Source: a virus
Taxonomy: Duplodnaviria; Heunggongvirae; Uroviricota; Caudoviricetes
Length of the DNA stretch: 8,668 bases
Reading direction: 5' to 3' (one strand)
Virus record (IMG/VR): IMGVR_UViG_2740892423_000019
Positions 2,323-8,668 of the stretch are shown here, piece after piece. Position 1 is the first letter of the stretch; each line of letters starts with the position of its first letter. The notes below the pieces were generated by a model. That model searched no databases, was not told the DNA's origin, and saw nothing but the letters and a program-made list of their open reading frames with translations. A program made the translations under genes and the position numbers.

Positions 2323-5300
2323 ATGGCAGTAAAGATTTCAGGTGTACTGAAAGACGGTGCAGGTAAACCGGTACAGAACTGCACAATCCAGCTGAAAGCA
2401 AAACGTAACAGCACCACGGTGGTGGTGAACACGGTGGCATCTGAAAATCCGGATGAAGCCGGGCGTTACAGCATGGATGTTGAGTACGGTCAGTACAGCG
2501 TTATTCTGTTGGTGGAAGGCTTCCCGCCATCGCATGCCGGGACCATCACCGTGTATGAAGACTCACAACCGGGTACGCTGAATGATTTTCTCGGTGCCAT
2601 GACGGAGGATGATGCCCGTCCGGAGGCACTGCGCCGCTTTGAACTGATGGTGGAAGAGGTGGCGCGTAACGCGTCCGCAGTGGCACAGAACACGGCAGCC
2701 GCGAAGAAGTCAGCCAGCGATGCCAGCACATCAGCCCGTGAGGCGGCAACCCATGCGACTGATGCTACAGGCTCAGCACGTGCAGCCAGCACATCAGCCG
2801 GGCAGGCCGCGACGTCGGCTCAGTCAGCGTCTTCCAGCGCAGGAACGGCATCAACAAAGGCTACTGAAGCATCAAAAAGTGCTGCCGCTGCAGAGTCCTC
2901 AAAAAGCGCGGCAGCCACCAGTGCCGGTGCGGCGAAAACGTCAGAAACGAATGCCGCAGCATCACAACAATCAGCAGCCACTTCTGCATCCACCGCGACC
3001 ACGAAAGCGTCAGAAGCTGCCACCTCAGCCCGGGATGCGGCGGCCTCAAAAGAGGCAGCGAAATCATCAGAAACGAACGCATCATCAAGTGCCAGTAGTG
3101 CAGCTTCCTCGGCAACGGCGGCAGGAAATTCCGCGAAGGCCGCAAAAACGTCTGAGACGAATGCGGATAACAGCGCACAGGCGGCAGCAGACTCACAAAC
3201 TGCATCGGCAAACTCCGCGACAGCAGCCAAAAAATCAGAAACCAACGCGAAAAATAGCGAGGCAGCAGCAAAGAGCAGCGAAACCAACGCTAAAGCCAGC
3301 GAAACTAATGCTAAATCCAGTGAAACAAACGCGGCGAAATCTGCGGCGGACGCACTTAATTATCGCAACCAGGCGCAAGTAATTGTTGGCGATAATATCG
3401 GTCTTGGTGAAGTTGCCATGACCTGCACTGATATCTCTGTTGAGCCATCAGGTTATATTGGATTTGTCAGGATTTACATCTCAGCGAAAGGTTATCCATC
3501 AGTAGCGTCTAGTGCCGGTGATAATCTTATTTCTGGTTATATAGTTAGATCAGAAGTGTCAACAAAAAGATATTCCGGTCTATTTGTTGGTTCAGATACA
3601 AAATCATTGTATTCGTACATTTACAGCCAAAGTTCTGGCCCGCAATGGATACGTCATACCCGCAGAGATGAATTAAGCCGCTTTGGTCAAAATGAATCAA
3701 CAACTCGTATGTATGGTCCAACTGGTGATCGTTTCTTTGAAATCCATACTAACGGGAGTTGGGGAGTTTATGATTCTTCTTCTGGACAATGGTCTCCGTT
3801 AGGTTTAGCCCAGGGCGGTACTGGTGGAAGAACTATCGAGCAAGCACGTGCGAACTTGCGGGTAATGTATGAGCAAAAAGCTGGCCTTGCTAATACTGAC
3901 CTAAACACCCTTACCGGTGAATATTCTGGTTTCTATCAACAACCAACGAGCGCTTACGCAACAGAAGAATTAAATTACCCAATCGGTCTGGCGGGCGCTT
4001 TAATAGTGCTCCAAACGAGAGCCAACACTGCTTCTTCCTGCGTTCAGGTGTACTACCCTTATAATAATCCGGGAATTACTTATAGACGAATATATGAAGG
4101 AGGAAGCGGTACCTGGTCTGAATGGAAGAGAGATGTATCAACAGAAAGGGTTGAAGAGGGAAAAGAAACAACTTACGTATATTCTACGTATTCTTCAGGC
4201 GCACCACGCTTACAGGTTTCCAAATCTGGTTTGTGGGGTTGTCATAATGGCACTGGCTGGTTGCCATTAGCTGTTGGGCAAGGAGGTACAGGTGCGACAA
4301 CAGTAGAAGATGCGCGAAACAACTTAAGTCTTGGCGAAAGTAGCGCAGTTAAATTTAAAAACCTTACTTTAACCGAAGCGCTCGACACGACATTAGGACT
4401 GCTTACAAAAACAGGACGAGACTGGAACACGCAGCATACTGATAACATTAATAAATTTATACCAATTGCAGGCAGTACAAACGGCCCGGCAGGTTCTATG
4501 GTTCTTGGCGGCATTCATGTTCAATTTAGTAAAAATTATGCTGTGCAGTTCGGAGGCCGCAATTCCGGTTTTTGGGGAAGAACAATTGAAAATGGAACGA
4601 CGCAGGAATGGAAGAAATTACTAACAGTAGACGATCTCAATTCATCTACCGATCTTGCTGTCAGGTCATTAACCACATCTAACCCGGTAAAATCTGGCGG
4701 AGGGCGAATTGATGTCCTTGGAAGCACGTCAGACTATAGCAAAATGGATTGCTTTGTACGTGGGTTTGATAGCACCGGTAATTCTCTCGCGTGGGCGTTG
4801 GGTTCATCAGTCGGCGTAAGTAAGATGCTGTCGCTAAAAAATTTCTTTAGCGGAGCTGAGATACTGTTAAATGGTAATGACGGCGCGGTTCAACTCAAAA
4901 CAGGTGCTGTTAACGGGGCTAAAGCACAGGCGCTCACTATCAACAAGGATGAGGTTAACTCAACTGTTGATTTAACTCTTACAAAACAAACAGGGACTGG
5001 AAATCGTTTTGTTTTACAGAACTTAGGTAATACAGAACTATCATTTGCCGCAAAAGTATGGGGATCAAGTGATCGACAAAACGTTTTTGAGGTTGGAACG
5101 TCTGCTGCGTATCTGTTTTATGCGCAAAAAACATCAGCAGGCCAGTTGTTTGATGTAAATGGCGCTATTAATTGCACAACGCTGAATCAGTCATCAGACC
5201 GCGACCTTAAAGACGATATTCGCGTTATCAGCGACGCTACGAAAGCAATCCGTAAAATGAACGGGTACACCTACACGCTCAAGGAAAACGGAATGCCTTA

Positions 5301-5628
5301 TGCTGGCGTTATTGCACAGGAAGTAATGGAGGCGATACCTGAAGCTGTGGGATCGTTTACTCATTATGGTGAAGAGTTGCAAGGTCCGACCGTTGACGGC
5401 AACGAGCTACGCGAAGAAACTCGCTATCTTAATGTTGACTACTCCGCCGTGACGGGGTTACTTGTTCAGGTCGCCCGTGAAACAGATGATCGCGTTACCG
5501 CGCTGGAAGAGGAAAATACAACGTTACGTGAAAATCTGGCAACAGCAGGCACCCGGATCACCACTCTGGAAAATCAGGTAAGCGAACTGGTTGCACTTGT
5601 CGGGCAGTTAACAGGAAGCGAACATTGA
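2323..5628 (+). CDS. stf: Side tail fibre protein, mosaic: lambda Stf-like N-terminus, Ala/Ser/Thr-rich shaft, divergent distal region, C-terminal self-cleaving chaperone domain
   Basis: Translation from ATG 2323 begins MAVKISGVLKDGAGKPVQNCTIQLKAKRNSTTVVVNT, which matches the lambda Stf N-terminus as recalled. The ORF track starts at the in-frame GTG 2317, which I regard as an artefact. A GGGG Shine-Dalgarno-like run sits at 2314-2317. The protein has a long low-complexity Ala/Ser/Thr shaft with repeated K(T/S)SETNA units, and two GGTG-x-ARxNL motifs (LGLAQGGTGGRTIEQARANLRV and LPLAVGQGGTGATTVEDARNNLSLG) typical of the phage tail fibre repeat. The gene ends at TGA 5626-5628. Confidence 0.88.
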   Translation: MAVKISGVLKDGAGKPVQNCTIQLKAKRNSTTVVVNTVASENPDEAGRYSMDVEYGQYSVILLVEGFPPSHAGTITVYEDSQPGTLNDFLGAMTEDDARPEALRRFELMVEEVARNASAVAQNTAAAKKSASDASTSAREAATHATDATGSARAASTSAGQAATSAQSASSSAGTASTKATEASKSAAAAESSKSAAATSAGAAKTSETNAAASQQSAATSASTATTKASEAATSARDAAASKEAAKSSETNASSSASSAASSATAAGNSAKAAKTSETNADNSAQAAADSQTASANSATAAKKSETNAKNSEAAAKSSETNAKASETNAKSSETNAAKSAADALNYRNQAQVIVGDNIGLGEVAMTCTDISVEPSGYIGFVRIYISAKGYPSVASSAGDNLISGYIVRSEVSTKRYSGLFVGSDTKSLYSYIYSQSSGPQWIRHTRRDELSRFGQNESTTRMYGPTGDRFFEIHTNGSWGVYDSSSGQWSPLGLAQGGTGGRTIEQARANLRVMYEQKAGLANTDLNTLTGEYSGFYQQPTSAYATEELNYPIGLAGALIVLQTRANTASSCVQVYYPYNNPGITYRRIYEGGSGTWSEWKRDVSTERVEEGKETTYVYSTYSSGAPRLQVSKSGLWGCHNGTGWLPLAVGQGGTGATTVEDARNNLSLGESSAVKFKNLTLTEALDTTLGLLTKTGRDWNTQHTDNINKFIPIAGSTNGPAGSMVLGGIHVQFSKNYAVQFGGRNSGFWGRTIENGTTQEWKKLLTVDDLNSSTDLAVRSLTTSNPVKSGGGRIDVLGSTSDYSKMDCFVRGFDSTGNSLAWALGSSVGVSKMLSLKNFFSGAEILLNGNDGAVQLKTGAVNGAKAQALTINKDEVNSTVDLTLTKQTGTGNRFVLQNLGNTELSFAAKVWGSSDRQNVFEVGTSAAYLFYAQKTSAGQLFDVNGAINCTTLNQSSDRDLKDDIRVISDATKAIRKMNGYTYTLKENGMPYAGVIAQEVMEAIPEAVGSFTHYGEELQGPTVDGNELREETRYLNVDYSAVTGLLVQVARETDDRVTALEEENTTLRENLATAGTRITTLENQVSELVALVGQLTGSEH
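5194..5625 (+). other. C-terminal self-cleaving chaperone domain of Stf (Peptidase S74 / endosialidase-chaperone-like)
   Basis: The motif SSDRDLKDDIRVI has the Ser-Asp-x-x-x-Lys signature of autoproteolytic tail-fibre chaperone domains (phage K1F endosialidase, T5 L-shaped fibre). It is followed by IRKMNGYTYTLKENG and a heptad-like tail, TALEEENTTLRENLATAGTRITTLENQVSELVALVGQL. Predicted cleavage is after the Ser encoded at 5194-5196. The assignment is by motif recall and was not searched. Confidence 0.65.
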
Positions 5629-5679
5629 TATCCTTCAAGCCCTGAAGGAGGCTGTTCCTGGTACGTTCAGACTGTTGTT

Positions 5680-5811
5680 GAGCTGGAAATCGCAACGGAG
5701 GAAGAAACCTTGTTGCTGGAAGTCTGGAAGAAGTATCGGGTGTTGCTGAACCGTGTTGATACATCAACTGCACCTGATATTGAGTGGCCTACGAACCCTG
5801 TCAGGGAGTAA
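5680..5811 (+). pseudogene. tfa: 3' remnant of tail fibre assembly gene tfa (last ~43 codons, no start codon)
   Basis: The segment translates to [43 protein letters not shown], which closely matches the lambda Tfa C-terminus (recalled as ...[37 protein letters not shown]...). It lies in the same frame as stf, directly after the stf TGA, with no ATG, GTG or TTG start and no N-terminal Tfa sequence. Confidence 0.7.
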
Positions 5812-5825
5812 TCATTGGGATTATG

Positions 5826-5858
5826 CCGCAGCACGTCTTAAGCAAGAGCGAGCTGCGG
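5826..5858. repeat. 33-nt palindromic element, copy A (hairpin between the convergent tfa remnant and methyltransferase 3' ends)
   Basis: The sequence is ccgcagcacgtcttaagcaagagcgagctgcgg. An imperfect stem (ccgcagc...gctgcgg) lies 8 nt downstream of the - strand methyltransferase stop codon (5866-5868). It is 33/37 identical, including the flanking ttgg, to copy B at 8526-8558. Confidence 0.5.
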
Positions 5859-5865
5859 TTGGATG

Positions 5866-6534
5866 CTATTTTTTCCCTGAAGCGGAAAACATTACTACAG
5901 TACCTTGAACCTTGGTTTTAACATTCTCGAAATGCTCTGAGAGTATATGTGTTAAGCCTTCTTCGGAATCTTTTGTGTTTGAAAAGATGCCTTTCTGATT
6001 GTAAATGCGCATCAGTTTTTGACCGAAGCTATTGTGCACAACTCCATCGCCAAGAATTGTGGCTCCGTATAGAGTTCCATCGTCAGTTAAGGCCTGCGCC
6101 GCATTGCGTATTACACAGCTTTTTGTAGATATATTTCCAGGCAGGCAGTGAAGAAGGTAAAACATGGAAATGGAATCAAATTGACCATGTAACGCCGCGG
6201 GATAAGGTTCAAAAACATCATGGCTAATTTTATGTTTAATTTTTGATTCCCCAGCCCTTGTAGATGCCGCGTTCAGGCTAGCTTCGTTCAAATCCATTAA
6301 AGATATCAGACTACTCTCAGGTACGTGAGTAAGGTAAAACCCAGTTCCAACACCAATATCCAGATGGTTGTTACCTAAATGTTCCAGAAAGTGTGGAAGA
6401 AGGTGTTCCTTTGTAGGACATCCCCATGCAAGCCGATTTGATACTCCCAAAACCCACCAGTCATAAAGCTTTAGGGTAAGTGGTGTGTAAATTTTAGCCC
6501 CATCATCTGTGTTTTTTTTCATTAATTTCACCAT
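5866..6534 (-). CDS. Class I (Rossmann-fold) SAM-dependent methyltransferase, substrate unknown
   Basis: The 222-aa ORF carries a canonical motif I, HLDIGVGTGFY (hh-D/E-h-G-x-G-x-G), and a downstream acidic motif-II-like LISLMDLNE. GC is around 40%, lower than the phage structural genes. The start is uncertain: ATG at 6534 (MVKLMKK) or ATG at 6522 (MKKNTDD, weak ggtga Shine-Dalgarno-like sequence 6 nt upstream). Confidence 0.72.
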   Translation of the reverse strand: MVKLMKKNTDDGAKIYTPLTLKLYDWWVLGVSNRLAWGCPTKEHLLPHFLEHLGNNHLDIGVGTGFYLTHVPESSLISLMDLNEASLNAASTRAGESKIKHKISHDVFEPYPAALHGQFDSISMFYLLHCLPGNISTKSCVIRNAAQALTDDGTLYGATILGDGVVHNSFGQKLMRIYNQKGIFSNTKDSEEGLTHILSEHFENVKTKVQGTVVMFSASGKK

Positions 6535-6590
6535 GTTATAGTTTTGTTTGTGAATTAAATCAATTATGGTGATGAATTACAAGGGGTTAA

Positions 6591-6860
6591 ATGCTGCCGC
6601 AGCATAGCGATATTGAAATAGCCTGGTATGCTTCGATACAGCAGGAGCCGAATGGCTGGAAGACCGTCACCACATAGTTCTACATCCAGGAATTCAGTGA
6701 GCATATTGCGCCACTTCAGGATGCTGTAGATCTGGAGATCGCAACGGAGGAAGAAAACTCGTTGCTGGAAGCCTGGAAGAAGTATCGGGTGTTGCTGAAC
6801 CGTGTTAATACAACAACTGCACCGGATATTGAATGGCCAACAGGACCCATTATCGAATAG
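6591..6860 (+). pseudogene. Small ORF with a Tfa C-terminal-like domain, interrupted by an in-frame amber codon (TAG 6675-6677)
   Basis: ATG 6591 is preceded by aagggg (Shine-Dalgarno-like). It encodes MLPQHSDIEIAWYASIQQEPNGWKTVTT, then TAG, then in the same frame [60 protein letters not shown]. The second part matches the lambda Tfa C-terminus ([20 protein letters not shown]...[22 protein letters not shown]). No start codon exists after the amber codon. It resembles the small Tfa-C-like proteins of E. coli cryptic prophages (ynaE/ydfK family), from memory and unverified. Confidence 0.5.
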
Positions 6861-6871
6861 TGCATTACGAA

Positions 6872-6904
6872 CTGCAGGATATTATATGGGATAATATTCT
6901 GCAG
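6872..6904. terminator. AT-rich inverted repeat between convergent genes (possible bidirectional terminator)
   Basis: Arms of 14 nt, ctgcaggatattat and ataatattctgcag, carry one mismatch and flank a 5-nt spacer (atggg). The + strand continues with tttatt. The repeat sits between the small ORF stop (6860) and the cyclase stop (6934). Confidence 0.3.
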
Positions 6905-6933
6905 TTTATTGGGGCTGTATTTTAAAAAGGTGT

Positions 6934-8265
6934 TTATTTTGAGTGAGTTATCACCTTGTTTTTTCCGGTTCTTTTGGCTTGATATAACGCTTTATCGGCA
7001 TTGACTAACATTTCAGATGGACTGAGATTATTCTCTTTTGAAGTAAAGCAACCAATACTGACAGTTATTTTCTCAGGTCCATGCGATAATAATTTTTCCG
7101 AGCATTGCTCTTCAATGTTTTTTCTGATTCGCTCTGCAATTGATAGCAAGAGCTTTTGAGTATTACCTTTAATGATAATACCGAACTCCTCACCGCCTAA
7201 GCGCCCTAATATATCCTCTTTCCTGATGGATTTTTTTATTATTCTGGTAACCATTACTATGACTTGATCACCCATATGATGCCCCCATTTGTCATTGATG
7301 CTTTTGAAATTGTCAATATCTAACATTATTACTGAGAAATCATGGTGTTTTGATATATTCTTCAATGAGTCAATAAAGTATCTTCTATTGTATGTATTCG
7401 TTAGTGGATCATGAATTGCCATATGATTAGCATGATTTAATTTCCTGAAAACATAATACATGAGTGTTGAAATGATATAAATCATTGATATCAATTCAAG
7501 AAATTTTGTCATGTACCATGCAGGATGGGATTTATCAATAAAATACAATAAAATTAGATTATTGCATACTGACACTATACTAATAAGTATTATACACAAC
7601 CATATTTTTGAGTAATTACGTATGCTGATGCATGAGCTGATAAGTAATACAAGCCAAAATACTGATATTATTTTGGTGTACACGATATTCCACGTCGACA
7701 AATGACGATTCAGCGAGTATTGTATAATATTAAGACTATATTTTATATTGTCACTGCTTAGATTTTTTGCTACAAACGGAGTAATAAAAAGAATTAATAT
7801 TGACAAAACAACAATTATTATGTTTCTTTTATCTTCTAAAACACTTTTATTTTTAACATTGGTGGAATAAACAGCCAGAAAGATTATAGATATAAAGCTG
7901 AACTGACGGAATAGATAATATATTGCGATATCATTTGATTTCTGATAGATTGTAGATAAATCGTTACCTAACGGAGATAAAGAAATAATAGCCACTTCTA
8001 ATAAATAATACGTGTTGCTCAAAAACGCGAATGAAAGAATTAAGAGATAACTTTGTCTCTGATTAGAAACATAGTAAAGCAATAGAAAAATAAAAATCAT
8101 CAGGTTTATGAAAAAAAGCCCAATAATGAAAACACTATAACTTATTTGTGTTGTTTGTGTTATGTATATTCCATTATTTTCATGCAGTAACAAAAATATA
8201 ATAGAGATGCATGAAAATAAAAAGATGAAGATTTTTATTTTTATAGGTACCTGCTTGATAATCAT
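6934..8265 (-). CDS. Membrane-anchored diguanylate cyclase: N-terminal polytopic membrane domain (MASE-like) plus C-terminal GGDEF domain with GGEEF active site and RxxD I-site
   Basis: The 443-aa ORF has ATG at 8265-8263 with aggtg 5 nt upstream on the - strand. The first ~270 residues are highly hydrophobic, with about 8 predicted transmembrane segments rich in I, L and F. The GGDEF domain motifs are all present: HDPLTNTYNRRYF, MLDIDNFKSINDKWGHHMGDQV, the I-site RKED (7213-7224), and RLGGEEFG with GGEEF at 7183-7197. GC is about 25-30% by hand count on sampled 60-nt lines. The architecture resembles E. coli YcdT/DgcT-type cyclases and possibly the prophage-associated DgcX reported in some pathogenic E. 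coli; both comparisons are from memory. Confidence 0.9.
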   Translation of the reverse strand: MIIKQVPIKIKIFIFLFSCISIIFLLLHENNGIYITQTTQISYSVFIIGLFFINLMIFIFLLLYYVSNQRQSYLLILSFAFLSNTYYLLEVAIISLSPLGNDLSTIYQKSNDIAIYYLFRQFSFISIIFLAVYSTNVKNKSVLEDKRNIIIVVLSILILFITPFVAKNLSSDNIKYSLNIIQYSLNRHLSTWNIVYTKIISVFWLVLLISSCISIRNYSKIWLCIILISIVSVCNNLILLYFIDKSHPAWYMTKFLELISMIYIISTLMYYVFRKLNHANHMAIHDPLTNTYNRRYFIDSLKNISKHHDFSVIMLDIDNFKSINDKWGHHMGDQVIVMVTRIIKKSIRKEDILGRLGGEEFGIIIKGNTQKLLLSIAERIRKNIEEQCSEKLLSHGPEKITVSIGCFTSKENNLSPSEMLVNADKALYQAKRTGKNKVITHSK

Positions 8266-8337
8266 GTACGCACCTGAGAATGATATATATATAATATGTA
8301 TCGCTACAAATAACGATAATTTCTTACTGGTGATAGT

Positions 8338-8366
8338 ATACTATTATTCTGGTTAATCGCTGTCAA
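8338..8366 (-). promoter_or_regulatory. Candidate sigma70 promoter for the diguanylate cyclase
   Basis: On the - strand there is a perfect -35 TTGACA (plus-strand tgtcaa, 8361-8366), a 17-nt spacer, and a -10-like TAGTAT (plus-strand atacta, 8338-8343), about 70 nt upstream of the ATG. This is a hand prediction in an AT-rich region where chance matches are common. Confidence 0.25.
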
Positions 8367-8525
8367 ATTGATGATTTTGGTTAGTATTGCAATAGCGAAG
8401 AGTTTGATCCGGTAAGACTGGCTAGGCAAGGCTATACCAAAAAATCAGTGTAGGTTCAGAAAACGATGCACCATACAATCATCAATAATTTCAAATTGTC
8501 CATTGTGCATAAATCATAAAGAAAA

Positions 8526-8558
8526 CCGCAGCACGTCGTATGCAAGAACGTGCTGCGG
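8526..8558 (-). terminator. 33-nt palindromic element, copy B; on the - strand a hairpin followed by a T-rich tract (terminator candidate for a gene entering from the right edge)
   Basis: The sequence is ccgcagcacgtcgtatgcaagaacgtgctgcgg, with a perfect 11-bp stem (ccgcagcacgt / acgtgctgcgg) and an 11-nt loop. On the - strand the stem is followed by ttttctttatg. Reverse-strand frames at 8587-8668 remain open to the window edge, consistent with the 3' end of a - strand gene. Confidence 0.4.
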
Positions 8559-8668
8559 TTGGCTGGTGAACTTTCTGGATTTGCCCCTATATTTCCAGAC
8601 ATCTGTTATCACTTAACCCATTACAAGCCCGCTGCCGCAGATATTCCCGTGGCGAGCGATAACCCAGC

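Follow-up and report, generated by a model that had tools for sequence, protein, structure and literature searches.

Tail fibre assembly (Tfa) proteins combine a variable N-terminal beta-sandwich, which binds the fibre, with conserved C-terminal helices that mediate trimerisation (PMC9608196, summarising North et al. 2019). Escherichia coli K-12 carries a smaller gene related to them, tfaX (b0563, formerly ylcE), in its cryptic prophage DLP12; deletion of ylcE/tfaX leaves growth and biofilm formation like those of the wild type (PMC3646849). A third element in the same kind of neighbourhood is the diguanylate cyclase DgcX, which has been reported as invariably found beside lambdoid prophage DNA, mostly at attB (PMC4287979). 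Here we examine a locus that brings these elements together: a small open reading frame (ORF) in an 8,668-nt stretch of tailed-phage DNA (IMG/VR record IMGVR_UViG_2740892423_000019, hereafter the window). Its 28-codon beginning is cut off by an amber codon from an in-frame, Tfa-like continuation. We consider this ORF, with a probability of roughly 0.88, to be a nonsense allele of the tfaX-family small ORF (K-12 b0563, PHROG 2341), which is itself a recombination product. The arrangement of the locus, its ancestral codon and the frequencies of its alleles, all directly observed, carry this reading.

The frame can be read directly from the sequence. A Shine-Dalgarno-like AAGGGG (plus strand, 6581-6586) is followed by TTAA and then by the ATG at 6591-6593, 4 nt 3' of the AAGGGG and directly preceded by an in-frame TAA (6588-6590). 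The AAGGGG is kept in 78 of 80 viral-contig copies and reads AAGAGG in the other 2. From the ATG, 28 sense codons (MLPQHSDIEIAWYASIQQEPNGWKTVTT) lead to TAG at 6675-6677, and 60 more sense codons in the same frame lead to a terminal TAG at 6858-6860, the frame being open across 90 codons around the TAG at codon 29. The truncated plus-strand frame (6591..6677) thus holds 28 tfaX-family-specific N-terminal codons and the amber stop; the post-stop frame (6678..6860, plus strand) holds 7 more family-specific codons and then a lambda-type Tfa C-terminal helical trimerisation module. Over residues 31-86, the read-through product aligns with Pfam Caudo_TAP positions 75-130 of 131 (E=4.3e-24; 85.6 bits, cut-off 22.1) and with Mu Tfa residues 123-174 (PDB 5yvq_B, E=1.2e-7). 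Judged by these matches, the stretch after the TAG is genuine Tfa homology and not a chance open frame.

The original prediction, made from the letters alone, had proposed just this layout, with a well-placed ATG, 28 codons, the TAG and 60 in-frame Tfa-C-like codons, and both the sequence and the Caudo_TAP match bear it out. Its further statement that the second part has no start of its own holds for ATG and fails for other codons, as an in-frame TTG lies at 6762, with GGAGG (6746-6750) 11 nt 5' of it, and an in-frame GTG at 6789. Because ordinary tfa genes share those codons, neither is evidence of a separate gene. RefSeq PGAP annotation of strain MB53 treats 6684-6860 as a pseudogene, 'tail fiber assembly protein, incomplete, missing N-terminus'. 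On the minus strand, a 46-codon ORF (6564-6704) overlaps the amber codon, and in TAG-lineage genomes only PGAP annotates its 6609-6704 part as an incomplete 'hypothetical protein'; this annotation is probably an artefact of the broken plus-strand frame.

Comparison with profiles and proteins indicates that the small ORF is a homologue of K-12 tfaX. The read-through product covers positions 1-87 of the 88 in phrog_2341 (E=2e-57), a PHROG family of unknown function, and the N-terminal segment alone matches positions 1-36 (E=9e-24). That segment of ~36 residues, MLPQHSDIEIAWYASIQQEPNGWKTVTTQFYIQEFS, is specific to the family, and the ORF carries it: the first 28 residues are common to K-12 TfaX, phage ev243 gp27 and the PhiR68_2 homologue, and identity to K-12 TfaX is 28/28 residues before the stop and 7/7 after it. 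Two other hallmarks of the family are also present, namely the in-frame fusion to a tfa 3' end (~88-89 codons, on the read-through product) and a divergent YbcY-type methyltransferase gene spaced by 56 bp. The family's uninterrupted frame is missing. With TAG at codon 29, we therefore file the ORF as a nonsense (pseudogene) allele of the tfaX family.

A single base sets this allele apart. CAG (Gln) stands at the position of the window's TAG in K-12 tfaX, ev243 and PhiR68_2, which are otherwise near-identical to the window up to ~6700, and also in loci L008, L009, L012 and L013. A 54-nt probe with CAG matches exactly in 2772 of 3212 locus-carrying complete-genome records (86%). The corresponding 57-nt probe centred on TAG is exact in 192 such records, ~2750 others differing from it at 1-2 positions. 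Among viral contigs (the 80 best matches in IMG/VR), 78 have CAG and 2 have TAG.

The carriers of TAG resemble one another closely. Among the matches listed, they have the same neighbours throughout and 99.9-100% identity over the 1351 nt around the ORF, a stretch in which 196 records reach 99% identity or more. The 2 viral contigs with TAG match the window at 99.6-100% identity across 2.8-3.3 kb. An intact sister allele (P0001) encodes 89 amino acids with Gln29 and the same C-terminal tip beside the same dgcX. Its contig shares 99.4% identity with the window across 2043 nt, and over codons 37-80 the allele differs from the window by 1 non-synonymous and 3 synonymous changes. From the CAG and TAG frequencies, the near-identical carriers and the intact sister allele, we conclude that the TAG is a real and derived state of recent origin, restricted to one prophage lineage, in which a C-to-T transition at 6675 converted Gln29 (CAG) to the amber codon (6675..6677).

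These comparisons favour one of the alternatives raised by the original prediction, a recent nonsense pseudogene. It had named CAG as an example of a sense codon that homologues might carry at this position, and that is the codon found in K-12, ev243, PhiR68_2 and 78 of the 80 viral loci. Homologues all ending at the same TAG, which it had counted as contrary evidence, were not seen; most read through codon 29. Translation from the ATG at 6591, if any, would end after 28 residues, and the Tfa-like part would not be made; we expect the frame 6678..6860 to be untranslated.

How did a family-specific leader come to be joined to a tfa 3' end? We propose that a mobile block was placed inside a direct duplication of the tfa 3' end. 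The block comprises a minus-strand YbcY-type methyltransferase gene, a 56-bp spacer and ~36 family-specific codons that bring a Shine-Dalgarno sequence and an ATG of their own. Lying inside the duplication, its 36 codons therefore run in frame into the Tfa C-terminal helical module and yield an ORF of ~89 codons.

Both sides of this arrangement can be seen in the window. A 127-nt direct repeat has one copy at 5666..5792 and the other at 6715..6841, inside the ORF under study (both on the plus strand, 89% identity). The left-hand copy of the duplicated end belongs to a first tfa 3' fragment (5677..5811, plus strand) that PGAP annotates as a tfa pseudogene missing its N-terminus and that can be aligned to the 3' end of K-12 tfaD and the flank beyond it. 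Elsewhere the duplication reaches up to 189 nt (~190 nt) and takes in the downstream hairpin. On the right, window positions 6695-8575 are 99.3% identical to strain JE86-ST02, where they belong to a full-length tfa (194 aa) and dgcX. Because the match from 6695 onward is to tfa-dgcX, the ORF is a chimera of a cassette-specific leader and a dgcX-linked tfa 3' end, the one invariably found before the cargo gene dgcX in the right-end region of lambdoid prophages.

The hairpin itself is 40 nt long, has a 10-bp stem (CCGCAGCACG...CGTGCTGCGG) and is present in the window at 5826-5865 and 8526-8565 with 88% identity between the two. In loci L023, L035 and L083 each copy of the duplicated tfa 3' end is followed by such an element, which may act as a terminator or mark a site of recombination. 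Sub-threshold Rfam CssrB matches (44 and 24 bits; gathering score 76) overlap the 40-nt elements.

The methyltransferase gene (5866..6534, minus strand) encodes a 222-residue YbcY-type class I enzyme dependent on S-adenosylmethionine (Pfam Methyltransf_12/23/25; phrog_2132, E=8e-157), and to judge from the loci compared it is the constant, divergently arranged partner of the small ORF. The layout of methyltransferase, spacer and small ORF occurs in the window, K-12 DLP12, ev243 and PhiR68_2, all lambdoid fibre contexts, and in most of the 80 viral loci. The same cassette is found in P2-like prophages beside smpB (L009-L011, 2276-3270), once directly after gpD with no upstream tfa, and 3' of a tailspike gene in another phage type (L012-L013, 2276-3267). 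In L012 the methyltransferase gene is split into pieces of 48 and 42 amino acids and the small ORF is intact.

The divergent spacer (6535..6590), which runs from the methyltransferase start to the small ORF start, keeps its 56-bp length and near-same sequence wherever the methyltransferase gene is intact. In K-12, the ybcY-tfaX spacer gave a peak with RpoD holoenzyme in systematic evolution of ligands by exponential enrichment (SELEX) and bound H-NS, both in vitro, and a tfaX promoter was predicted as ATGGCA-15-TTAAAT (PMC3946193). The predicted -10 overlaps the ATG, so a transcript from that promoter would lack the start codon. The TAG-lineage spacer has GTTTTGTTTG and ATGGTGATG where most copies have GTTTTATTTG and ATGGCGATG; these substitutions are common to only 2 of the 80 viral loci, and one of them hits the predicted tfaX -35-like hexamer. 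A promoter and terminator scan of 5600-7100 returned no plus-strand promoter-like site and no terminator, with counts below shuffle expectation that make the scan uninformative.

The family has lost its frame more than once. We count at least three independent nonsense events: CAG to TAG at codon 29, TGG to TGA at codon 62 (K-12, L004 5876-6061; PhiR68_2, L003 3052-3237) and TGG to TAG at codon 62 (L083, 1501-1686). Because of its codon-62 mutation, the annotated 61-residue K-12 TfaX is itself a truncated allele of the ~89-codon ORF. Recombination has also produced C-termini without the Tfa motif, as in the 101-residue ev243 type and the 82-residue P0024, and homologous ORFs that continue past codon 29 extend to 61-101 codons.

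Polymorphism was counted over 88 copies with 13 distinct alleles; sequence diversity in the family-specific segment is close to nil. Codons 1-36 hold 6 synonymous and 14 non-synonymous polymorphisms and 1 stop, a pattern indistinguishable from neutral (binomial p=0.15). Against divergent copies, the same codons show 2-3 synonymous and 4-8 non-synonymous differences, with a ratio of non-synonymous to synonymous change (omega) of 0.35-0.9. Codons 37-80 hold 29 synonymous and 31 non-synonymous polymorphisms (p=3e-5), and synonymous divergence (dS) between copies from different contexts reaches 0.3-1.5, far above the divergence of codons 1-36. This pattern is as expected for sequence repeatedly replaced through recombination with functional tfa genes. 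The methyltransferase is near-identical across contexts (dS <=0.035); its polymorphism count across the viral loci was discarded because some loci were not collinear and gave spurious stops.

Loss of the ORF was probably without consequence, since the product would lack the fibre-binding N-terminal domain and the neighbouring fibre has its own S74 chaperone. Several observations nevertheless weigh against our reading. The neutrality test on codons 1-36 draws on just 20 substitutions and so is of low power. The 80 viral loci were the best-scoring matches to a full-length query, which biases their 78-to-2 count toward intact copies. Intact alleles of 86-89 residues are common; in many contexts they retain both the Shine-Dalgarno sequence and the ATG, and their C-terminal tips are of at least seven different kinds. 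The intact family might thus be functional, in which case the TAG allele would be a loss of function and not the further decay of junk.

One form that such a function could take is that intact tfaX/phrog_2341 proteins act as stand-alone Tfa C-terminal trimerisation modules. Together with the YbcY methyltransferase they would make up a travelling cargo cassette of two genes, located at the tail-fibre end in lambdoid, P2-like and tailspike prophages alike. Such proteins could possibly co-assemble with the Tfa of co-resident or superinfecting phages and so modulate or poison it, and the window's amber allele would then be a natural knock-out of the stand-alone module. The retention of Shine-Dalgarno sequence, ATG and frame beside so many C-terminal tips speaks for this idea, although homologous recombination preserves frame automatically. 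The lack of significant constraint on codons 1-36 and the repeated independent nonsense mutations count against it, and we regard it as unlikely.

Other explanations of the amber codon itself were weighed against the nonsense-allele reading. If the gene worked through amber suppression or programmed readthrough of TAG 6675-6677, an 89-residue protein would be made, and the downstream frame is indeed open and near-unchanged relative to the intact sister allele; since the mutation is recent, an open downstream frame is no surprise. A suppressor inserting glutamine would restore the ancestral residue. Efficient suppression of UAG in E. coli favours a 3' purine, and the base that follows the TAG here is U, which tells against suppression at this codon. 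To our knowledge, natural isolates normally carry no amber suppressors, and the 8,668-nt window contains zero tRNA genes. Programmed readthrough is typically marked by a stop conserved among homologues; here TAG is the rarer allele (192 exact records, compared with 2772 for CAG) and is tied to one near-identical arrangement, and other lineages break the ORF elsewhere. We therefore find no support for this proposal of the original prediction and hold it to be highly improbable. Its alternative of a sequencing or assembly error is virtually negligible, as 192 complete-genome records, assembled independently, and 2 IMG/VR contigs contain the identical 57-nt stretch with TAG. That the real gene is a 28-residue peptide, and the downstream Tfa-like part an unrelated remnant, would fit the good Shine-Dalgarno sequence and ATG and the binding of RNA polymerase to the K-12 spacer in vitro (PMC3946193). 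We find this scarcely credible in view of the 86% of locus-carrying records that match CAG exactly, with ORFs of 61-101 codons, the 88 positions of the phrog_2341 profile and the absence of significant constraint on codons 1-36.

A different possibility is that the region encodes a non-coding RNA, instead of or besides a protein. A match to Rfam RF02111, 'IS009', covers plus-strand 6614..6817 and overlaps the ORF; its cmscan score of 129.9 bits exceeds the gathering score of 117, and the other tfa fragment gives a weaker match at 5568-5768 (92.7 bits). The K-12 ylcE/tfaX transcript has been detected, up 2.55-fold in mixed biofilm (PMC3646849). Compared with tfaD, however, the model consensus reads as tfa coding sequence. 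Although the covariance-model score is above threshold, structural support was not found here, in either stability or covariation: in the window 5 of the model's 23 pairs depart from canonical pairing, the predicted fold does not outdo those of shuffled sequences (z=-0.95), the small set of 11 distinct tfa 3' sequences shows no compensatory changes, and 91 of 500 shuffles equal the covariation score. An IS009 RNA is accordingly very unlikely. RF02111 matches every tfa end, and it may be a mis-assigned 'small RNA' family built on tfa pseudogene remnants.

The surroundings identify the window as the right arm of an E. coli lambdoid prophage. The 1351 nt around the ORF are 100% identical to strain MB53, where the order is J, lom, side tail fibre, tfa fragment, methyltransferase (minus strand), tfa fragment, diguanylate cyclase (minus strand), ybhB and bioA, that is, the lambda attB region. 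Identity between window and MB53 is 98.0% over 4411-8575. The side tail-fibre gene (2323..5628, plus strand; Pfam phage_tail_N and Peptidase_S74), with its start at ATG 2323 taken from the MB53 PGAP annotation and the sequence, ends in a C-terminal S74 intramolecular chaperone and contains a long Ala/Ser/Thr-rich repeat region. In this gene the window is distinct from MB53, being shorter by 309 nt in the repeat region. Since an S74-bearing fibre needs no separate Tfa, loss of the 5' part of tfa is understandable.

Downstream of the ORF lies a MASE4-GGDEF diguanylate cyclase gene (6934..8265, minus strand; Pfam MASE4 and GGDEF), which encodes 443 amino acids, has its stop 73 nt after that of the ORF and is consistent with published DgcX. 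The dgcX gene is present in 771 of 5426 genomes. The original prediction was right that a diguanylate cyclase adjoins the ORF; dgcX beside lambdoid prophage DNA had already been published (PMC4287979). The 73-nt gap between dgcX, on the opposite strand, and the tfa 3'-end stop is constant in five contexts (the window, L005, L006, L007 and L008), which include attB-lambda, a site beside torT, one near torI/dsdC and a metagenome contig. In the window, 6861-8565 places dgcX and ~260 nt upstream of it between the tfa end and the hairpin element, which elsewhere directly follows tfa. Given the constant gap and the hairpin placement, dgcX looks like cargo inserted behind tfa and moved by tfa 3'-end recombination, rather than or besides the specialised transduction suggested earlier (PMC4287979).

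The last 92 nt of the window (8577-8668) are an IS2 end, a 100% match to regions annotated 'IS3-like element IS2 family transposase'. This IS2 is inserted ~310 nt upstream of the dgcX start codon, immediately past the hairpin element, and could affect dgcX expression. The junction occurs in no complete E. coli genome of the collection searched, so the window's source strain differs from all those genomes at this point. The lambda att core (GCTTTTTTATACTAA) is absent from the window, which ends in IS2 before any attachment site.

As a discovery the amber allele has little significance, being a nonsense allele of a catalogued remnant gene. The locus combines an allele of tfaX/phrog_2341, a known kind of mosaic region (the cargo region of lambdoid prophages distal to the tail fibre), the published dgcX and a pseudogene annotation in RefSeq. 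In practical terms, annotators should avoid calling the ORF a tail-fibre assembly protein, a recoded gene or a cold-shock gene. A broader implication is that the highly conserved tfa 3' end would act as a homology 'linker' that shuffles cargo genes, among them the YbcY methyltransferase and the biofilm-relevant DgcX, among prophages, and this shuffling bears on the spread of dgcX between E. coli lineages.

Among known systems, the one named in the original prediction was the cold-shock-induced YnaE/YdfK family of the Rac and Qin prophages. Membership in that family was rejected: the YnaE-family protein of PhiR68_2 (depositor's annotation) has no similarity to the ORF (BLASTP E=9.9), the two families are unrelated, and we found no cold-shock connection for tfaX. 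Only the neighbourhood is shared, as PhiR68_2 has a separate YnaE-family gene between pin and ybcY, and no YnaE/YdfK-family gene lies within the window. NCBIfam gave zero model matches for the ORF or the YnaE-like protein. PADLOC matched neither the ORF nor the cyclase to a defence-system model and gave only a sub-threshold mad2 match (E=0.003) for the methyltransferase.

The resemblance to lambda Tfa, K-12 TfaD and Mu TfaMu (PF02413, 5YVQ) is real and partial. The last ~55 residues of the ORF are homologous to their conserved C-terminal helical module, which in the window is located downstream of the stop. Full-length Tfa neighbours (194 residues) have both Caudo_TAP_N and Caudo_TAP, whereas the ORF has no Caudo_TAP_N match and lacks Caudo_TAP positions 1-74. 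Because the N-terminal fibre-binding beta-sandwich is missing, the ORF is not a functional Tfa. Nor does it adjoin a cognate fibre in need of a chaperone: unlike a lambda-type tfa, it does not directly follow the fibre gene, from which a tfa fragment and the methyltransferase gene separate it.

The closest counterpart is K-12 tfaX. The two share the 36-residue N-terminal part, the Shine-Dalgarno sequence and ATG, the 56-bp divergent spacer to ybcY and the fusion to a tfa 3' end. They differ in where the frame is broken: K-12 keeps CAG at codon 29, and a change of TGG to TGA at codon 62 shortens its product to 61 amino acids. They also differ in their surroundings: in K-12, ybcY is a pseudogene, tfaX lies downstream of tfaD, and appY and ompT follow tfaX where the window has dgcX. 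The tfa-derived part of the window's ORF is of the dgcX-linked type, and in this it differs from K-12 tfaX.

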